Positions 1 through 63,204 of a stretch of DNA of 64,000 nucleotides are shown in pieces. The notes under the pieces are model-generated. The model saw nothing but the letters and a program-made list of their open reading frames with translations, ran no database searches and was not told where the DNA came from. The translations under genes and the position numbers were made by a program. Source of the DNA: a virus; the IMG/VR virus record IMGVR_UViG_3300028549_001560; one strand, given 5' to 3'. Positions within the stretch are counted from its first letter, which is position 1, and each line of letters opens with the position of its first letter.

Positions 1-3000
1 ATGTTTTATCAATTTCAGACCATGTCGAATTAGGTCCATCCTCTATAAATGATTCGTTAATTGGAACTATCTTCGTCCAGAATGATGCTGGTGATGTAAA
101 ATAATTTCCATCGCTACCCTTTATTTCTCTTGTATTTATTTCCATCCATTGATTGAATCCTTGACTTAATTCATCTATTTTTTTCTGCTTTTCGAATATA
201 TCGGCAGTAGGATTTTCTGATAACCACTTAGCATATAATTTATTTCCGGCATCTCTTATTTTTTTCTTCTCAATTTCAAATCGCTCAGATACTTCGACTC
301 TAGCAACGTCCGAGAACTTTAATCCATCTGTCTTTTCTGTCTTAGCTTTTATCTCATCAAGTCTTTTGTCTATATCATTAATTATCTTTTTGAGAACATC
401 GTCTATCATTTCCTCAACTATATCACCGGTGTCTGGGTCTCTAAATCTCTTTAGTATTTCCATTTTAGTTTTATACAACTCCTCGTACTCATCTTGAAAC
501 TGTTCCATTGGCATTCTTTTTGGAATACTCTCAAGTAGCTCATAAAACTCAGGCTTAATTGTTTTTGCCGTGTTCTTCTTTCTCCACTCTTCGACCCTCG
601 CTCTGTCTTCGTCAGTTTTAGCTTCAGATAAATATCTATTCAATACCTTATTGAATTTATCATAGCTTGGCTTTCTCTTTATACTGCCATTAGAAAACAA
701 AGATTCATTCATCTCCGATATCTCTTCTGCTATAATCAAATCCACTCCAGTTTTTAGCTCTCCATTTGCATTAACTTTTGATGACAGATTCCTTTTGTTC
801 ATCTTAGCTGACTGCAAAAGCCTACTATCCCTTCTTGTCATATTGATCGTGTCGGGAGTTCCGTCTTGAGACATATACTTAGATAATATTGAATGTATAG
901 CATCATTGGCTTCGTCTAAGGCATTTCTAGTTAGCTCAGATAGCTTTAGTCTTGCCTCATAATAGGCTGGCTTAAACATCCTCTCAGAGTGTTCTACCAA
1001 GTAGTCATGAATCTCTCTGTCATATTCCGATCTGAGCTTTTCTGTTTCTGGCCTAGACTCAACTGTGTTTAACTTATACTTCTTCTGTAGATCTCTTTTA
1101 AATGACTCAAATTTAAATAAAAATACACCATACTTCAGTGGAGATACTAAGTACCCAGTAGCTACGCCATTATCATCAACCTCATATGCATCGTTATATG
1201 ACGTATACAATAGATGTGATTTTTTATATGACTTGGCGAGGGCTATAAGCTTCAATATATTGCTATTTCTTGTAAATTCTGAATTAGCCCTTGCTTTTGC
1301 CTCTTTTATTCTTGTACTCAACACACTTAATTGTGATATATTAGAGTATTTTGGAGCACCAAGAACTGTAAACAAGAATGAGAAATCGTGATCTATTTCA
1401 AATGTATTCTTTCCTAATGTATGTTTAAGCGACTCATCACCTCTGGCGGCTGCCGTCTCAAGTAGTACATTTTGATATTGATACATAAATATTCTATCAT
1501 AGATTATATCCATATTGTTTAGTTTTCCAGCAATACGGTCTATGTTATTTCTAATTATACCTGCAGTATTTGAATCTACACCATCGAAAAACTTTGATCC
1601 AGGTGCGAATATAGACTCGACAGATTTAAGCATATTTCTATACATATCTATGAAATCTGCCTTCGCTAAATCAATAATATTTGAATCTAATTTTTCATTT
1701 CGAAGCCTTCTCTCGTCTAGCGCAATCATAGTTTTCTCCATTTTATCAACCTCTCCTTCTTGTGTTGATGTTCCTCCGGCAAATTCTATAAATTTAATTA
1801 ATGCCTCTATATCTTCAGATTCCTCTATAGTTGCAACTAATTTTTGTATTTTCTGCGTGTACCTAACATCTACACCCTCTCTTTTCTTTATTGAAGACAA
1901 TTGAGTTCTGAATGCGTTAGCCATCTCGGATTTTATATCAGAGAATGTTTTCATACCAAGTGAGCTATCTGCAACATGCTTATGTCTCACCATCATAAAT
2001 CTAGACTCCTCTATATCGACTCCATTTGGTTTTGAAATAGCCTCTTTTATAATAGGAATAACCTCACTCACCGATAGTTTGGCCTGATGCGATGTATTGA
2101 GTATTATAGATGTAGATAGCGGTGTTCTCTCTTTGCTGTTATTTAATGAATTTAATAAATTATCAGCCTGTTCACCAGTAATTAAATTAACCTCGTCAGT
2201 GCCATATAATATCCAACTAGCAAGCTGTTTTCCAGTAGCACCTATTTTTATATTATTTATATCGCTAGTTATACCAAATTGATTTTTTATGAAAGCTGCA
2301 AACGCTTTGAAGAATTTTACTATTACACTATCATCATTGATTGTATTTTTATTATTTAGTGCGGACTTTATTACAGAATCTATGTAGTGAGCTACTATTT
2401 CCTCTCTTGTATCATTACTATTGAGCCCTTCTGCTACTATTCCGTCAAGTTCTGATTTACTCATATTTGACATAGCTTCTTTGTATAATTTTTCAAATAT
2501 ACCAGAAAATTCTTTGCTATTTCTAATCAGTTCAAGAAATGGATGTGAAAATATTTCATGTATTGGAGTAGTTTCATCAAAATATTCAGCAATTATATAT
2601 GCAGTGTTAGTACTTCTATCATACATTCCAGAGTCTCCATCTTGGTATCTTTGGTTTATTTTTTTAGCCTCAGATGATGAAATTACATTAAAGTTTATCC
2701 CAGTCCTCTTGGACAGTGCATTTGCTATTGCGTATACGGCGCGTAGACCCTCTTTAGAGCCTTTCTGTGCTACTTTCTTTCCAAGTTCGATTAATTGTTC
2801 ATAAAAAGATTTGGAGTCTGTAGTGAAGCTTGTATCACTTCCTAGAGTGTCTTCAAATTGATCTGATTCCAGTATGCCAATATTATTGTCCTGTTCTTTT
2901 TCTGTAAAGATAATAGAATTCTGCTTATTTGATGGGTCTGTATTTAGATGAAGGTCTCTTCCTTGGGTTGTGAAATTACTAGATGGCATATTTATTGTTT

Positions 3001-4363
3001 TAAAAACAAAATGCCTCATCCCTTTAGTGGTTGTAATATTGCTTGTGTCTTGATTATACGGAATATAGTTAACCATATCAACCATATCCTTAGCCCTACC
3101 CATTCTTATTTTAGCTTCAAATATAGTTCTCCAAGCTTGTAGGTTCTTGTTGTCGCTAGCTGTTTGAACTTCTAGTTCACTAAAGAATAGATCTATAGAA
3201 GTATCACCATAAGACAATGTTACTGTATATGCACCTCCTTTATTGAAGAATGCAGTTACTTTAGACCCAGGGAATTCATTTAATATGTTATTAACATATT
3301 CACTGTTTGCTATAGATGATATAATTGAAGTCGGATCATACATTGAAAATCCAGGTAAATGTAAACTAGCTGCGTCGTTACTGTTATCAAATAGTTTTTT
3401 ATCAGAATCGCTAAGAACACTAAATGGAACAGAGAAATCTAGATCATGCATATTCTCGTCTGCTGTTCTATATAGAGTCCCTTGCTCTCTAAGAGATAAT
3501 GACCCTGTAAGTACAGCACCAAGACTATTTAATTTATCTACTATAGTCTTTGCATCAGGGTTGTTGTCTAGAGTTCTATTGAAATTAGTTAATTGAGCAT
3601 CGCTACTTATTTCTGTGCTATATTTAGAAAATACACCATTAAGCATGTCAGAAGCAATTTCAGAAACTAATGAGTTGACTTCATCGCTAGACATTGCTCC
3701 AACTCTAAGAGCTTGTTTTATCTTTCTAGCAAGTTTAAGTAGGTTGTACTTAACAGTCTTTATTAATTTAGTACTTCCAGATATAGACCAATACTCAGCA
3801 ACTCTGGTAGACTCCTGTTTTTCTGAGTTCTCATAGTTAACTATAGCCTCTGCAAGTAGATCAACAACTATTAGTTCTTTTATCTTATAGTCATTTAGAT
3901 TTGTAGACCTTTCTTTATACTTATTATATAGTTCTTGATAATTATCTATATTTTGTATGTTTGATAGCAAGTCTGTTTTTATCTTGTTCTTAGACCCAAG
4001 CATCATTAATCCAACATATGCAGCTTCTTTAGACAAGCCGGATAGATTATTAGAGCTTTCTGTAAGCATTATAAGTTTGCCTATTAAATCTGTAGCAGAT
4101 ATAGCATCGTAGCCAGTGATTGATTTAAGTTCTTCAAATGACTGTACGTCAAATCCAAGCTTAGATAGAAATGCATTTATCTTTTCTTTCTTGCTTGATC
4201 CCTCACTTATCTTATTTATCCCCAACTGCTCTAGTGTTGGCCATTCGTCCGTCTTATTGTTATCCATCCAGATACTCATCTTTGCAGATAGAATAGCAGG
4301 ATGAAGCCCTGACTCATTTGCCAAGGCTTGAAACTGCGGTAATTTAATATTAATACAATTCAT
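1..4363 (-). CDS. Very large virion-associated protein, N-terminal >=1,454 codons only (gene runs off the left window edge)
   Basis: Manual minus-strand translation from ATG 4363-4361 (MNCINIKLPQFQALANESGLHP...) is open in every codon down to position 2. The start lies 10 nt after the TAA of the 4,630-aa gene. It is absent from the ORF track because there is no in-window stop. Function is inferred only from position. Confidence 0.85.
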   Translation of the reverse strand, partial: MNCINIKLPQFQALANESGLHPAILSAKMSIWMDNNKTDEWPTLEQLGINKISEGSSKKEKINAFLSKLGFDVQSFEELKSITGYDAISATDLIGKLIMLTESSNNLSGLSKEAAYVGLMMLGSKNKIKTDLLSNIQNIDNYQELYNKYKERSTNLNDYKIKELIVVDLLAEAIVNYENSEKQESTRVAEYWSISGSTKLIKTVKYNLLKLARKIKQALRVGAMSSDEVNSLVSEIASDMLNGVFSKYSTEISSDAQLTNFNRTLDNNPDAKTIVDKLNSLGAVLTGSLSLREQGTLYRTADENMHDLDFSVPFSVLSDSDKKLFDNSNDAASLHLPGFSMYDPTSIISSIANSEYVNNILNEFPGSKVTAFFNKGGAYTVTLSYGDTSIDLFFSELEVQTASDNKNLQAWRTIFEAKIRMGRAKDMVDMVNYIPYNQDTSNITTTKGMRHFVFKTINMPSSNFTTQGRDLHLNTDPSNKQNSIIFTEKEQDNNIGILESDQFEDTLGSDTSFTTDSKSFYEQLIELGKKVAQKGSKEGLRAVYAIANALSKRTGINFNVISSSEAKKINQRYQDGDSGMYDRSTNTAYIIAEYFDETTPIHEIFSHPFLELIRNSKEFSGIFEKLYKEAMSNMSKSELDGIVAEGLNSNDTREEIVAHYIDSVIKSALNNKNTINDDSVIVKFFKAFAAFIKNQFGITSDINNIKIGATGKQLASWILYGTDEVNLITGEQADNLLNSLNNSKERTPLSTSIILNTSHQAKLSVSEVIPIIKEAISKPNGVDIEESRFMMVRHKHVADSSLGMKTFSDIKSEMANAFRTQLSSIKKREGVDVRYTQKIQKLVATIEESEDIEALIKFIEFAGGTSTQEGEVDKMEKTMIALDERRLRNEKLDSNIIDLAKADFIDMYRNMLKSVESIFAPGSKFFDGVDSNTAGIIRNNIDRIAGKLNNMDIIYDRIFMYQYQNVLLETAAARGDESLKHTLGKNTFEIDHDFSFLFTVLGAPKYSNISQLSVLSTRIKEAKARANSEFTRNSNILKLIALAKSYKKSHLLYTSYNDAYEVDDNGVATGYLVSPLKYGVFLFKFESFKRDLQKKYKLNTVESRPETEKLRSEYDREIHDYLVEHSERMFKPAYYEARLKLSELTRNALDEANDAIHSILSKYMSQDGTPDTINMTRRDSRLLQSAKMNKRNLSSKVNANGELKTGVDLIIAEEISEMNESLFSNGSIKRKPSYDKFNKVLNRYLSEAKTDEDRARVEEWRKKNTAKTIKPEFYELLESIPKRMPMEQFQDEYEELYKTKMEILKRFRDPDTGDIVEEMIDDVLKKIINDIDKRLDEIKAKTEKTDGLKFSDVARVEVSERFEIEKKKIRDAGNKLYAKWLSENPTADIFEKQKKIDELSQGFNQWMEINTREIKGSDGNYFTSPASFWTKIVPINESFIEDGPNSTWSEIDKT

Positions 4364-50320: not shown

Positions 50321-50986
50321 TTATAGGTTAAGTAAGCCTCTATCTTGTGATTTTAAACTTGAAGTCTCAGACCAAGAATTAGAGAATAGTGGCTTATCAA
50401 AAAGGTTTTTGTTTCTTATTTCTTGCTCTTTCTTTTTTACATGCAAGTTGTGTAATTGCTCTCTAAATATCATTAAACACTGTAGGGCTCTAACTCTATC
50501 GAAATTACCTTTGTCGTTGTATTGTATTAGTTCTTCTATCAATGGCTCAGACAATATTCTGGTCAGGTTTTTAAATCCAGGAGCATACTCTTCATTCAAC
50601 CACTCTTTAATTAATCCCTCAGAATAATCTATGATCTGAGTAGTCATATGGATGCCTTTTCTCCTCTGTACAGTAGATCTTCCTATGATATCATTTATTA
50701 TATCCGGCTGATCTGCCAGCAAATAGTCTGAATGCTTTTGTGTAAAATATGGAAATATACCCTTTCTTTCGTTCTCGTATAATAATTTAGCGTTATAATA
50801 CAACAATAAACTCCTAACGTTCTCATAGTAGTCTTCAGCTCTATCGGGCCTTCCTGTATACTCTGCCACAATAACGTCATAGTACTCTTCAAAGCTCTGG
50901 AATCTTTTATATATAAATGTTGATCCTAATGAATTAGTTCCAGCCTTATCATGGTCGTCGATTGTGTTATCGATAGGCTTTTTATC
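50321..50986 (-). CDS. terL: Large terminase, 3' exon (C-terminal part of the nuclease domain)
   Basis: The frame of the listed ORF 50321-50869 stays open upstream to 50986. It reads DKKPIDNTIDDHDKAGTNSLGSTFIYKRFQSFEEYYDVIVAEYTGRPDR..., which continues the ...YIAG/CDP nuclease motif of the upstream ORF. The listed M is a GTG inside this frame. Confidence 0.7.
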   Translation of the reverse strand, partial: DKKPIDNTIDDHDKAGTNSLGSTFIYKRFQSFEEYYDVIVAEYTGRPDRAEDYYENVRSLLLYYNAKLLYENERKGIFPYFTQKHSDYLLADQPDIINDIIGRSTVQRRKGIHMTTQIIDYSEGLIKEWLNEEYAPGFKNLTRILSEPLIEELIQYNDKGNFDRVRALQCLMIFREQLHNLHVKKKEQEIRNKNLFDKPLFSNSWSETSSLKSQDRGLLNL

Positions 50987-51220
50987 CTATCTTCTGGGGG
51001 TCACCCCGCATTATAGTATGTTGCTTCATACCCAGTCCAGCGTACATTATCAATATTGATTATTGTTGAGCACTCTTGGCAGAATTATATTTATTCATCT
51101 GCTACGCGTTACGGTGACAATTAGCCTTTCGAAATCTAATTGTTTACCTCGGTGTTTTCTACTAGAGACTTTCACCGATTTTGCTCAATTCTTACGACGT
51201 ATGTCGCACCGCTAAGTTAA
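50987..51220 (-). ncRNA. ORF-less group-I-like intron splitting terL (boundaries +/- ~15 nt)
   Basis: About 230 nt with stops in all frames and visibly less AT-rich, lying between two halves of one conserved TerL motif. Hairpins include GCGAC/GUCGU, UCGGUG/CACCGA, CAAUUAG/CUAAUUG, GCAGA/UCUGC, GGUAUG/CAUACU and GGGG/CCCC. A possible P1 is CCGU|UAACUUA GCGG. The 3' end is ...AGAUAG(G). Confidence 0.55.
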
Positions 51221-53758
51221 CGGGTCACAATTATGTGTGACGATATTTCTACACATATAAGTGTGTGTATCACATTCAAAATTATATACAGTTCCAGTAT
51301 ATTTTGATCTATCTATCTTCACTATAGGAATATATATATATTTTCCGCATTCAGATAATAATACTCTTTTTGAGCTCCCAATAGTTGAGTCTACCTGTTC
51401 TCTTATTATTCTATTTATCTTATTGCTAGAAATAATAGATTCTATTCCAATTGGCACTATCTTTTTAATAGATGATCTTGCTACTGATAGTCTATATGAC
51501 TCCTTGCTTATATATTCTTTGTTATTAAATATAGATATAGATTTTTTACTGTGTCTAGTTATGGTATTTGATATTCCAGTAGAAAATAGTATATCTTGTA
51601 TTGATTCAAGTAACTCCAGATTTATACTTGTAAAGTTAACTCTTAATTTTCCTCTATCATAGTATGCGCTTCCATCTGAATCTAAATATCCAGATATCAT
51701 GTATTTTCTTAATTCATCTCTAGATAGCTTAGCCCACTCTGGAATTCTTTTGCCGTATGAATACTTTCCAAATTCTTTTTCTAGTAAATCAAATAGTGGC
51801 TTATGTGTAAATCTTCTTGTATTTCCACCATTTGTCTTACAATGAATCGTCTTTCTATTGAAAAGTTTTTCAATTACATTATCAAATTGGATTGCACTTT
51901 CTGTTTGATCTATTCCAAAAGCAACATATATATCATGAGAATTACCATTTCTATTATTAAACCCACCTCCAAGCCAGACTCCTATAAACCACCAAAATAG
52001 ATTATTATCTGGGTCTACATAAGCTCCCAGATATTTATATATCTTTGATACATATTCTTCTGTATATGATCCGTATTTATTCGGTATTTTTAGTCTATCT
52101 CCAGTTTTTAAATATTTTGCTTCTATAAATTGATCTTCTATTAAAATTGGATGCTCCTCTGTAAAATTGGTACCTCTATAAGATCCGTATGGGGTTACCC
52201 TATATGTATCGTGATTTTCTTTGTGTCTTTTTTGGAATACCTTTATCTTAACAGTTTCTCCTTTTTCATTTATTAATTGATCATTATGATCTACTAATTC
52301 TACGTTCTTAAGTCCATTGTTTGTCAGAACCTTCTCCCCTGGAGTTAGACAGCCAGCTATATATAATCCATGTGGTGAGTCCTTAACTGGATGTTCCCAT
52401 ATCACTATAGAACCAGTCGTAGCATCATTCTTTCCTAATGGATATTTGGTTATGTCTCCGCCTTTTTTTATTTGCCATGTTAGGACACCGTTTATATATA
52501 CTAGATCTCCAACCTGCTTATGGGATTGAAGCTTCCTATTGGATCTAATAAGAGATAGTTGAGCCATCAACTCTTTTTTTGGAAATATATTTCCAGTTAA
52601 TTCTAAGCAGGCTTCTTGCGGTGTTACTGGATTTTCGGCAGAATATCTATCTATTGCTCTAGAGTCAGATGATCCTTCGATAACCTTCTCTCTTTCGCTC
52701 ATTGCGTATGCTATAGCCTTATCTTTAAATGTATTACCATTATTATCCATGTAGCATCTATTACCATCCTTATCGAGAACAGACATATTTGCATACACTG
52801 GAACAAAGAAAGCGCATTCATTCCCATCTGCACCCTCATCCCATGCATTATTAAATGATTTTACATTATACCCCTTAGGATTGTAAAACATTTCCTTGAG
52901 TCCGTCGAACCTACTTGAATCATCACCGCCAGTCCCAAATGCAACCATCAAGCCATACGCAACACCATCTTCTTCTACAGAAGGCCTAGCAATTTGCCAT
53001 GCTTGCAGAATATCCTTGAATGATCCAGCCTCCTCCCATAGTATGAGTTTTCCGCGTTTACCACGGGCGCGGTTAGGGTCGTTTTTAAGTGTTACTCCAA
53101 TTATCTCAGATTTATAACCAACCTCAATTCTGTTGCCCATTTCATCTGTTGTTACAATTGATGCTCTTCTATGCATCTTAGTACTAACAGCTTGACGTTT
53201 CTTTGACCAGGCGGTATGCTCATCTATAAAGTCCATTAAATCCCATGCTTTTGTTATGAGTCCATCGCGAACTAAATATTCTGTCTCTGATGCAATTGCA
53301 TATGATTTAGACTCTGGTATGAGATAATAGTTTCTAACAAGCATAGAACTACCTTTAAACGAATAGCCCTTACCACGCGCCTTTAACACAACCATGTGCT
53401 TGCCCTCATCCTCTGCTTCTTGTATTCCTGAAAAATAATAATAGTCGTAATCATAAAAATCCGGAAACTCTCTAGTCTTCTCCCTCTTCTTTCTCATGAC
53501 GCCATGTCTATCTTTATACTCAACCTCTACAAGCCTTAATATTGGGCAGTAATTTAAATACCAATAATTATATCCACTTATCCAATCGCCATCGTCCGCT
53601 GTATATCCATCAATACATCTAGCTTCTTCTCCTTCCCAGTACTTTAAATACTCGGATGACCCTACTGGTGCAGAACAATAAAAGCCGCTATCCTGAAATC
53701 GGATAGCAGCCTGACGAAATTTCTGAGAATTTAAAACCCTTCTTTCGAAATCTATCAT
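51212..53758 (-). CDS. terL: Large terminase, 5' exon (ATPase domain and start of nuclease domain), with an in-frame intein
   Basis: Walker A-like VVLKARGKGYS and Walker B-like KLILWEEAG. The extein sequence ...PHGLYIAG is interrupted at Cys470. The ORF ends ...THN/CDPLT*, with TAG 51212-51214 predicted to be intronic. Confidence 0.85.
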   Translation of the reverse strand: MIDFERRVLNSQKFRQAAIRFQDSGFYCSAPVGSSEYLKYWEGEEARCIDGYTADDGDWISGYNYWYLNYCPILRLVEVEYKDRHGVMRKKREKTREFPDFYDYDYYYFSGIQEAEDEGKHMVVLKARGKGYSFKGSSMLVRNYYLIPESKSYAIASETEYLVRDGLITKAWDLMDFIDEHTAWSKKRQAVSTKMHRRASIVTTDEMGNRIEVGYKSEIIGVTLKNDPNRARGKRGKLILWEEAGSFKDILQAWQIARPSVEEDGVAYGLMVAFGTGGDDSSRFDGLKEMFYNPKGYNVKSFNNAWDEGADGNECAFFVPVYANMSVLDKDGNRCYMDNNGNTFKDKAIAYAMSEREKVIEGSSDSRAIDRYSAENPVTPQEACLELTGNIFPKKELMAQLSLIRSNRKLQSHKQVGDLVYINGVLTWQIKKGGDITKYPLGKNDATTGSIVIWEHPVKDSPHGLYIAGCLTPGEKVLTNNGLKNVELVDHNDQLINEKGETVKIKVFQKRHKENHDTYRVTPYGSYRGTNFTEEHPILIEDQFIEAKYLKTGDRLKIPNKYGSYTEEYVSKIYKYLGAYVDPDNNLFWWFIGVWLGGGFNNRNGNSHDIYVAFGIDQTESAIQFDNVIEKLFNRKTIHCKTNGGNTRRFTHKPLFDLLEKEFGKYSYGKRIPEWAKLSRDELRKYMISGYLDSDGSAYYDRGKLRVNFTSINLELLESIQDILFSTGISNTITRHSKKSISIFNNKEYISKESYRLSVARSSIKKIVPIGIESIISSNKINRIIREQVDSTIGSSKRVLLSECGKYIYIPIVKIDRSKYTGTVYNFECDTHTYMCRNIVTHNCDPLT
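51230..52351 (-). mobile_element. Intein (374 aa) with a LAGLIDADG homing-endonuclease domain, inserted in terL
   Basis: N-terminal junction YIAG|CLTPGEKVLT (Cys1 codon at 52351-52349). C-terminal junction IVTHN|C (Asn codon at 51232-51230, +1 Cys). LAGLIDADG blocks WWFIGVWLGGGF and ISGYLDSDGSAY. Confidence 0.85.
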
Positions 53759-62127: not shown

Positions 62128-62393
62128 TTATTTAATGCAACTGTCTTGCTTCTTATGAGCGATTCAAGACAAAGGTTACAAGTCCTCTAAATGCAGAGTA
62201 AATAAATAGAAAGACCGACTGTAATCCAACCACAGTCAACCACTATCCTCGTGGTAATAATAAATTAATAGCCCGCAAGGTTATTTGAGTTGGGATGCTA
62301 CATATGTTCATACCGAAATATATGGAGGATGGTAGTTGGTTCGGCAAGCCACTAGACAAGGGCCTAGTACGATAAAAGACTTTAACTGTAGTC

Positions 62394-62630: not shown

Positions 62631-63204
62631 AGCAAGACTGCCACAATCTAAGACCTCCATAACCTAATAAGGGAATAGGCGGAGGTCGCACTAATGTAGC
62701 CACCGTAATGGGTGAAGGTCCAAAGCCCTTGTAAATACAGATGGATGCAAATAGTTAATATTTATTGAATTAAGTACTAATAACAAATAATCTATAATCG
62801 AAGCAAAGCAACATGAGTGTCTTGAAACAACATAGTGTAAATCATAGCAGTGGTTGAATGTTTTGGTAGATGTAATGTTTAGGCTTGTGAAATTGTAAGA
62901 TTAATAACCTTATCTAAATTAGCATTAAGCGAATAAAAAGCGAAAGATAAATCCTAAATTATTATTCCACTCTGCATAAGTGGATAGAGATTTTTTAAAA
63001 AATAAAGCCTGGATATTGGTGCTAACGAGTCGTCATATCGAATCGACCAGGACTGAAGATACCGCAGACACTTAGGTATTCGCTCTAAACATTGATAGCG
63101 ATAAATAAATTAGATACTAATCCTGAATTAACGGGATGTGCAGGAGAGGACTGATAAGCCTCCCACCATAAGTCATGGAGTAATCCTAGTATAGATGTAC
63201 ATTG

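Follow-up and report, generated by a model that had tools for sequence, protein, structure and literature searches.

The DNA analyzed here (hereafter the window) is a stretch of 64,000 nucleotides from IMG/VR virus record IMGVR_UViG_3300028549_001560. Its minus strand carries terL, the gene for the large terminase of DNA packaging, of a crAss-like, Suoliviridae-like phage, and the C-terminal part of the inferred product is 76% identical to the TerL protein of crAssphage cr118_1 (Suoliviridae). An 848-aa open reading frame (53758..51212, minus strand) is composed of the N-terminal 469 residues of TerL, a 374-aa intein, and the five codons C-D-P-L-T, and the terL frame halts at a TAG codon (51214..51212, minus strand) right after ...THNCDPLT. 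The frame is open again only past a second TAG (50989..50987), from which it continues to 50321 (minus strand), and the gap between stop and reopening, 225 nucleotides, is in frame with both exons. The features of the locus, as we interpret them, are as follows.

52352..53758, minus strand: N-extein of terL (residues 1-469, ending ...PHGLYIAG); part of the ORF 51212..53758, aligning with the TerL proteins of cr118_1 and cr6_1

51230..52351, minus strand: intein of 374 aa (CLTPGEKVL...IVTHN) that includes a LAGLIDADG endonuclease domain; Pfam LAGLIDADG_3, E 3.7e-08, and a weak HINT match

51220..51229, minus strand: first 10 nucleotides of the C-extein, TGT GAC CCG T; read from the sequence, intron-less relatives going on ...CCG TAY GAY

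50959..51219, minus strand: predicted group I intron (subgroup IA-like), 261 nucleotides, ORF-less; from comparative junctions, covariation, and a family-model match of 177 bits

50321..50958, minus strand: exon 2 of terL, AC GAC CAT GAT ..., with the C-extein DHDKAGTNSLG... and the stop codon at 50323..50321; 76% identity to cr118_1 TerL

Both exons have open, conserved frames, and the spliced coding sequence has 1059 codons with a single terminal stop (1058 aa). The intein is present in the TerL of cr118_1 and missing from that of cr6_1, which lacks intein and intron alike and reads ...GLYIIG|VDPYDHD at the aligned point. The site of the intein is immediately before the Asp of the GxDPYDHD motif and 10 nucleotides upstream of the intron. 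The +1 residue of the intein is Cys; the intein-less cr6_1 protein has Val there.

When positions 50700-51500 were used as a query against public sequencing runs, this piece was present in full only in one microbial-mat metagenome study, the runs of which are of the DNA type. Wastewater and freshwater runs contained parts of it only, from relatives, and runs labelled as RNA, which may be DNA, contained small shares, likewise from relatives. Because the DNA of the window is almost complete in the microbial-mat runs, the phage is probably environmental rather than a gut phage.

The insert and its junctions with terL

An earlier note, made from the sequence alone, had described the insert as a very small, structured element that is closed in all reading frames and less AT-rich than its flanks. 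Most of this description stood. Over positions 50987-51220 we counted 6-8 stops in each frame of the gene strand and 2-4 in each frame of the plus strand. Every gene-strand frame of the window's intron is interrupted by 8 stops, and it holds no ORF, hence no homing endonuclease gene. The GC content over the same positions is 0.40, as compared to 0.34 in the downstream exon (exon 2) and 0.30 in the intein, and the hairpin-rich fold is a real feature, being more stable than that of shuffled sequences (z = -2.7). The size is another matter: among ORF-less introns of group I, a length of 261 nucleotides is not exceptionally short.

The intron extends from 51219 to 50959 (minus strand; 261 nucleotides), in phase 1 of a Tyr codon and inside the conserved motif hhhG-x-DPYDHD. 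On sequence grounds, we place its borders at 51219, directly after the exon U, and at 50959, its terminal G, because joining 51220 to 50958 restores TAC (Tyr), giving CDPYDHDKAGTNSLG, and a single open frame in which the motif reads ...HN|CDP-Y-DHDKAGTNSLG. The predicted junction in the ligated RNA is ...GACCCGU|ACGACCAU..., and the predicted junction across the joined exons is ...TGTGACCCGT|ACGACCATGAT.... The TerL protein of cr118_1, which has the intein and no insert, reads ...THN CDPYDHDKSGTSSLG at this point (in a second rendering, ...THN-CDPYDHDKSGTSSLGSTFIYKR).

These borders are further supported because four independent results agree on them. One comes from cr7_1 and cr131_1, which have the same insert with a 1-nucleotide indel in the very stretch that the earlier note had translated as DKKPIDN. 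Another comes from wastewater run X8, in which contigs of relatives have 51220 joined to 50956 with nothing but AT between them (that is, CCG TAT GAC); in a second X8 contig the two sides are likewise joined, with a 20-nucleotide variant in the exon. As these contigs belong to relatives of the window's phage and the library may be DNA, we rejected the X8 joints as proof of splicing and take them to be intron-less forms of the relatives. The third result is the set of alleles in IMG/VR: four contigs without the insert run directly CCGT|AYGAYCAY, and at least 30 contigs have the insert at the identical place, beside the same intein. All 29 of the 29 complete same-site copies are 223-273 nucleotides long, are ORF-less, and end ...G|AYGAYCAYGAY. 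The fourth is the P9.0 pairing, which is considered below.

The earlier note had offered two placements of the intron, both of which must be revised. In the first, the 5' site after CCG-U was correct, as judged by the intron-less alleles, and the 3' site after G50986 was 27 nucleotides too early. The second was wrong throughout, its 3' site after G50987 falling 28 nucleotides too early. The intron-less alleles, the indel, and P9.0 speak against both 3' sites. In place of the products derived from them, DP-Y-KKPIDN and DPLT-DKKPIDN, we obtain CDP-Y-DHDK, as is seen in the intron-less TerL of cr118_1. We also rejected the reading of DKKPIDNTI as codons: this stretch is the last hairpin, P9.1, together with the tail of the intron, relatives have the 1-nucleotide indel in it, and in the portion that had been read as DKKPID (50972..50991) all six of the six P9.1 pairs covary.

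The TAG at which the terL frame halts lies in frame at intron nucleotides 6-8 (51214..51212), where it would stop ribosomes before they entered the ribozyme core. Phage group I introns have been described as in-frame insertions that carry a stop codon near their beginning (PMC2504315), a habit into which the window's intron fits.

Helices and their covariation

All helices of the window's intron are intact. Its elements are listed here in the order in which they would be transcribed, with the evidence for each; P1 additionally uses the end of exon 1.

51209..51219, minus strand: P1 loop UAACUUA and internal guide GCGG (intron nucleotides 8-11); sequence

51193..51208, minus strand: P2 hairpin (nucleotides 12-17/22-27); compensatory changes in the closest relatives, L062, L125, and L097

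51182..51188, minus strand: P3 5' strand, UUGAGCA (nucleotides 32-38); 7/7 pairs covary

51149..51178, minus strand: P4-P5, with A-rich J4/5 and J5/4 (nucleotides 42-71); P4 99% paired, 4/6 pairs covary

51113..51148, minus strand: P6/P6a (nucleotides 72-107); 10/11 pairs covary, 98% paired

51103..51109, minus strand: P7 5' strand, with A111, bulged C112, and G113-A117; 100% paired in 46/46 sequences

51079..51102, minus strand: P7.1 hairpin with a nearly invariant 14-nucleotide loop, UGAAUAAAUAUAAU (nucleotides 118-141); 5/5 pairs covary, 100% paired

51066..51072, minus strand: P3 3' strand (nucleotides 148-154), forming the pseudoknot with P7; covariation

51051..51065, minus strand: P8 (nucleotides 155-169); 4/4 pairs covary, 97% paired

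51039..51044, minus strand: P7 3' strand (nucleotides 176-181), preceded by J8/7, AUAAUG; covariation

50994..51037, minus strand: J7/9, in which G183 and A184 make up the 5' side of P9.0, followed by P9, whose loop is GUGA; alignment of relatives

50972..50991, minus strand: P9.1 hairpin with a conserved loop, AUAAAAAG (nucleotides 229-248); 6/6 pairs covary, 99.6% paired

50959..50971, minus strand: 3' tail, GAUAACACAAUCG, with U259 and C260 as the 3' half of P9.0 and G261 (position 50959) as the terminal G; P9.0 complementarity

The pair counts were obtained by mapping the window's helices on 46 distinct ORF-less copies (alignment A3). Across these sequences, 96.0% of 2334 cells are standard pairs, as compared to 29.5-43.5% in slid controls, in which the 3' partners were shifted by 1-3 columns. 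Both sides have changed in 42 of the 51 pairs, and none of 500 shuffles matched any of the observed measures. RNAalifold, applied to five sequences, found P3, P4, P5, P6, P7.1, P9, and P9.1; compensatory changes were seen at 27 of the 45 pairs.

P1 was present as the earlier note had drawn it, CCGU/GCGG with the loop UAACUUA. Its 5' strand is the last four nucleotides of exon 1, CCGU (51223-51220), which pair with the guide as U.G, G-C, C-G, and C-G, the U.G lying at the splice site and U51220 being the 5' splice-site U. The corresponding helix is CCCGU/GCGGG in cr7_1 and AACGGU/GCCGUU in phage JCL1032 of Lactobacillus delbrueckii. The exon strand of P1 is constant in the same-site group, so the support for P1 there is pairing and not covariation. 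P2 is missing from the cr7_1 group, and most relatives are without the 24-nucleotide branch hairpin of P9 (nucleotides 189-212).

P7 crosses P3, which is the pseudoknot of group I introns. Two pairs of P7 covary (its closing pair is A-U in 29 sequences, G-C in 14, and C-G in three), and a G-C and a C-G pair are invariant. The pair G113-C180 is G-C in 46 of the 46 sequences and stands beside one bulged nucleotide of the 5' strand; by analogy with the family, it is the putative guanosine-binding pair. An alternative register of P7, with C112 paired to G182 and U181 bulged, was rejected, as its closing pair would form in only 29 of the 46 sequences and that of the canonical register forms in all 46. 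Similarly, the P8 helix proposed by RNAfold (AUCA/UGAU) was replaced by the one indicated by comparison (CAAUA/UAUUG).

P9.0 pairs the dinucleotide that follows P7 with the one that immediately precedes the terminal G (G183A184/U259C260 in the window). These dinucleotides are exactly complementary in 36 of the 46 sequences (the mean for shuffles being 10.5 and the maximum 20 in 5000), and the pairs seen are GA/UC, AA/UU, AG/CU, AC/GU, GU/AC, and UG/CA. For P10 we found no convincing candidate, the P1 loop UAACUUA having no complementarity to the 3' exon ACGACC. P10 is not universal among group I introns, and its absence carries little weight.

Introns of the T4 type (IA2) have two hairpins, P7.1 and P7.2, in the segment that separates the 5' strand of P7 from the 3' strand of P3. 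In that segment of the window's intron a single covarying hairpin, P7.1, was demonstrated and no second helix (P7.2), and the intron is accordingly called no more than IA-like.

The covariation also bears on the idea that the terL message is read across the insert by the ribosome, either by translational bypass (a hop over about 260 nucleotides, as in gene 60 of T4) or by readthrough of the stops. Such an explanation is helped by the 225 nucleotides from stop to reopening, which keep the frame of both exons, and by the reassignment of stop codons known in crAss-like phages (PMC7886860). Against this, the insert has eight in-frame stops of mixed kinds, and its changes are those of RNA helices (compensatory substitutions and indels) and not those of codons. 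Readthrough would put about 87 unconserved residues into the catalytic motif, matched take-off and landing codons for a bypass are not evident, and the insert is homologous to introns that are spliced. We therefore consider the probability of bypass or readthrough to be extremely low.

Group I relatives and the proposed splicing reaction

The earlier note had suggested a search with the Rfam group I model, RF00028, the absence of a match, together with a lack of GTP-dependent splicing, to be taken as refutation of a group I intron. We ran this search and obtained no match to RF00028, either in the whole window at the gathering score or at E<=10 in the 801-nucleotide slice 50700-51500. This silence is no refutation because the model fails on control introns: JCL1032 was missed and the nrdB intron of T4 scored 35.7 bits, below the threshold of 50. 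Rfam likewise gave no group I match at cr7_1, cr131_1, and JCL1032. RF00028 is thus weak on T4 nrdB and blind to the family to which the window's intron belongs.

We built a covariance model of the family core, R1 (162 positions, 36 pairs), and searched the window and two T4 loci, 70.6 kb, with filters off. The window's intron scored 177 bits, and the next-best matches were the group IA introns of T4 (NC_000866), td at 25.8 bits (E ~1e-5) and nrdB at 15.1 bits (E ~0.02), both on the right strand; everything else scored 11.4 bits or less. The E-values are rough, owing to a short calibration, but the order of the matches is clear. The td intron aligns best in the P4-P5 segment, which has nearly the same sequence in the two introns. 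In other respects the T4 introns are distant from the window's: they contain endonuclease ORFs (I-TevI, I-TevIII) and interrupt genes of nucleotide metabolism. Neither nhmmer nor R1 with filters off revealed a second copy of the intron family in the 64,000-nucleotide window.

Could the insert be a group II intron fragment, a regulatory RNA, or a ribozyme of some other class that mimics a group I intron? The lack of a match to any Rfam family would suit such an element; the remaining evidence points elsewhere. P1 has the exon U.G, P9.0 fixes the terminal G, P3 and P7 form a pseudoknot, P7 combines a bulge with an invariant G-C, and the helices follow in the order P4-P5-P6 and then P7-P3'-P8-P7'-P9. 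All of these are hallmarks of group I, covariation supports the core helices and P9.0, and the family model picks out the group I introns of T4. We judge a mimic of this kind to be extremely unlikely.

Relatives of the insert were also found by sequence similarity. A blastn search of the insert for distant similarity matched the terL of phage JCL1032, Staphylococcus phage ROSA, a locus of cr6_1 annotated as 'intron-encoded endonuclease', and terL genes that are split in two Staphylococcus phages (SA2 and vB-SscS-F1) and in Clostridium perfringens phage vB_CpeS-1181. An ORF in the P5 loop divides the homologous core of ROSA and vB_CpeS-1181 (annotated as an HNH endonuclease in the former and as a hypothetical protein in the latter), and the SA2 copy has an unannotated ORF 3' of the core. 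As the introns of these relatives carry ORFs, some of them annotated as endonucleases, the window's copy is an ORF-less member of the family.

Among the closest known relatives is the intron of JCL1032, the terL gene of which has been reported to contain a group I intron (Riipinen and Alatossava 2004, as cited in PMC6669764) and is annotated as a join in GenBank (NC_019456). Like the window's intron, it is ORF-less and is hosted by terL, and the two have a homologous core (72% identity over 127 nucleotides; nhmmer E 2.6e-56), the same helices with compensatory changes, the P7.1 loop, the P9.1 loop, and the GAUAAC tail. When the splice rules of the window's intron were applied to JCL1032, they gave GRKNG|KTT across Walker A. 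The insertion sites accordingly differ, JCL1032 having its intron in Walker A (GRKNG|KTT) and the window in the DP|Y motif of the nuclease domain, and for this reason P1 and the guide of the two introns are unrelated. JCL1032 differs further in having no adjacent intein, a Gram-positive host, and no P9 branch hairpin.

ROSA and JCL1032 have been noted among the phage matches of group I introns in terminase genes of Bacillus cereus prophages (PMC2504315), and the B. cereus phage introns were assigned to subclass IA1 or IA2 (Tourasse and Kolsto 2008, PMC2504315). The ROSA intron (compare term-IVS2 of B. cereus) belongs to the same sequence family as the window's (nhmmer E 5e-34). The introns of phages of the B. 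cereus group and of Staphylococcus resemble the window's in that their core is conserved and their P1 is fitted to the individual homing site; those of ROSA and vB_CpeS-1181 differ from it in their P5-loop ORF, host genes, and insertion sites.

Taken with the splice junctions and with the comparative support for P1-P9, including the covariation of P3/P7 and P9.0, this homology to spliced phage introns supports the proposal of the earlier note that the insert is an ORF-less group I intron. Its removal would very probably proceed by the usual self-splicing reaction, initiated by guanosine, with protein splicing of the intein to follow, the chemistry presumably being that of the family to which the intron belongs. 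The transcript would fold into P1-P9 with the P3/P7 pseudoknot, U51220 being held in the U.G wobble by the guide GCGG, and an external guanosine, bound at the invariant P7 pair G113-C180, would attack after U51220. P9.0 (G183A184/U259C260) would then put the terminal G, G50959, into the same site, and the freed 3'-OH of the exon would attack after G50959. The exons would thereby be joined as CCG-U|AC-GAC, creating TAC (Tyr) and one frame of 1058 aa, from which protein splicing of the intein would yield a TerL of about 684 aa.

Public annotation at first sight tells a different story. In RefSeq the terL genes of cr7_1 (NC_055895) and cr131_1 (NC_055902) end at the intron stop, and the downstream TerL exon is without an annotated feature (regions 2620-3452 and 2592-3434, respectively). 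Such records would suit a decayed relic that no longer splices, with TerL being either a truncated pseudogene or a split protein whose nuclease part is made separately. We regard this explanation as very unlikely. In the window all of the helices are intact and score 177 bits against the family model, the frames of both exons are open and conserved, and the arrangement persists across 30 IMG/VR contigs with synonymous divergence in their exons. Moreover, the frame of exon 2 contains no ATG, GTG, or TTG between 50986 and 50869, a position that is already past the catalytic motif, and a separate product would begin too late to include the DPYDHD motif, with about 30 conserved residues missing as well. 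If the intron is self-splicing, as we propose, it is the public records that truncate terL in such phages, and the full enzyme is predictable only after the intron and the intein have been removed.

Intron and intein in the crAss-like terminase

The phage of the window belongs to the group (Delta/Suoliviridae-like) in which TerL 'typically contains an intein' (Yutin et al. 2021, PMC7886860; PMC10136315) and in which group I introns have been reported in the core genes for MCP, PolB, and primase (PMC7886860, PMC10136315). These surveys located introns via endonuclease domains (PMC7886860, PMC10136315). An ORF-less intron in terL is not mentioned in either report (PMC7886860, PMC10136315), nor is one annotated in RefSeq for cr7_1 and cr131_1. 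Group I introns in phage terL genes and inteins in crAss TerL proteins were thus known, and what is new is an ORF-less terL intron at the crAss-like DP|Y site.

The family is large. An exact 18-mer that includes P7.1 loop sequence, which we used to retrieve the family from IMG/VR, is present in at least 118 contigs, nearly all of which hold the whole element as judged by nhmmer. RF00028 overlooks this large family, and surveys of phage introns based on that model or on endonuclease domains, including those published for crAss-like phages, therefore under-count ORF-less introns.

Separated by 10 nucleotides, two unrelated selfish elements of terL occupy the motif that is most conserved in the nuclease domain of the terminase. 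Among the IMG/VR contigs, 30 have the end of the intein together with the intron as against four with the intein and no intron, counts that are rough in that the search patterns fixed the Pro codon as CCG. This pairing suggests co-mobilization. None of the complete same-site copies (29/29) has an endonuclease gene of its own, and the ORF-less intron might conceivably spread as a hitch-hiker of the intein 10 bp away, the two forming a single, two-part selfish cassette. The LAGLIDADG endonuclease of the intein would cut an empty terL allele, and repair of the break would co-convert intein and intron. We put this forward tentatively, as a possibility on the unlikely side. Two cases speak against a strict link between the elements: cr118_1 has the intein alone, and one IMG/VR contig (L047), with an intein-less terL, has an intron 1 nucleotide away. 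The intron and intein of terL offer a clean natural system for studying the persistence and mobility of ORF-less introns.

The intron of L047 (IMGVR_UViG_3300000303_000029, 2081-2332, minus strand) is homologous to that of the window and lies between the Pro and Tyr codons of an intein-less TerL, GLYIAGNDP|YDQNESGT, 1 nucleotide upstream of the window's position, with P1 as CCCU/GGGG. From its sequence, it appears that the same terL motif has been colonized in a slightly different register.

The terL gene of cr6_1 (L129:1182-3242) has in-frame stops within conserved TerL motifs (DPYDHD*SGT and KRF*NFEEYY) and is closely preceded by a tRNA-Gln gene. These features are consistent with the reassignment of stop codons, which is known in crAss-like phages (PMC7886860).

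Finally, we note that the Rfam search of the window gave two matches to RF03160 (type-P1 twister ribozyme), at 62129-62204 (plus strand; 40 bits, E 2.8e-05, the gathering score being 67.2) and at 62688-62748 (plus strand; 52.5 bits, E 7.3e-09, below the gathering score of 67.2). Both lie in an ORF-poor, structured region around a lone antisense HNH gene.
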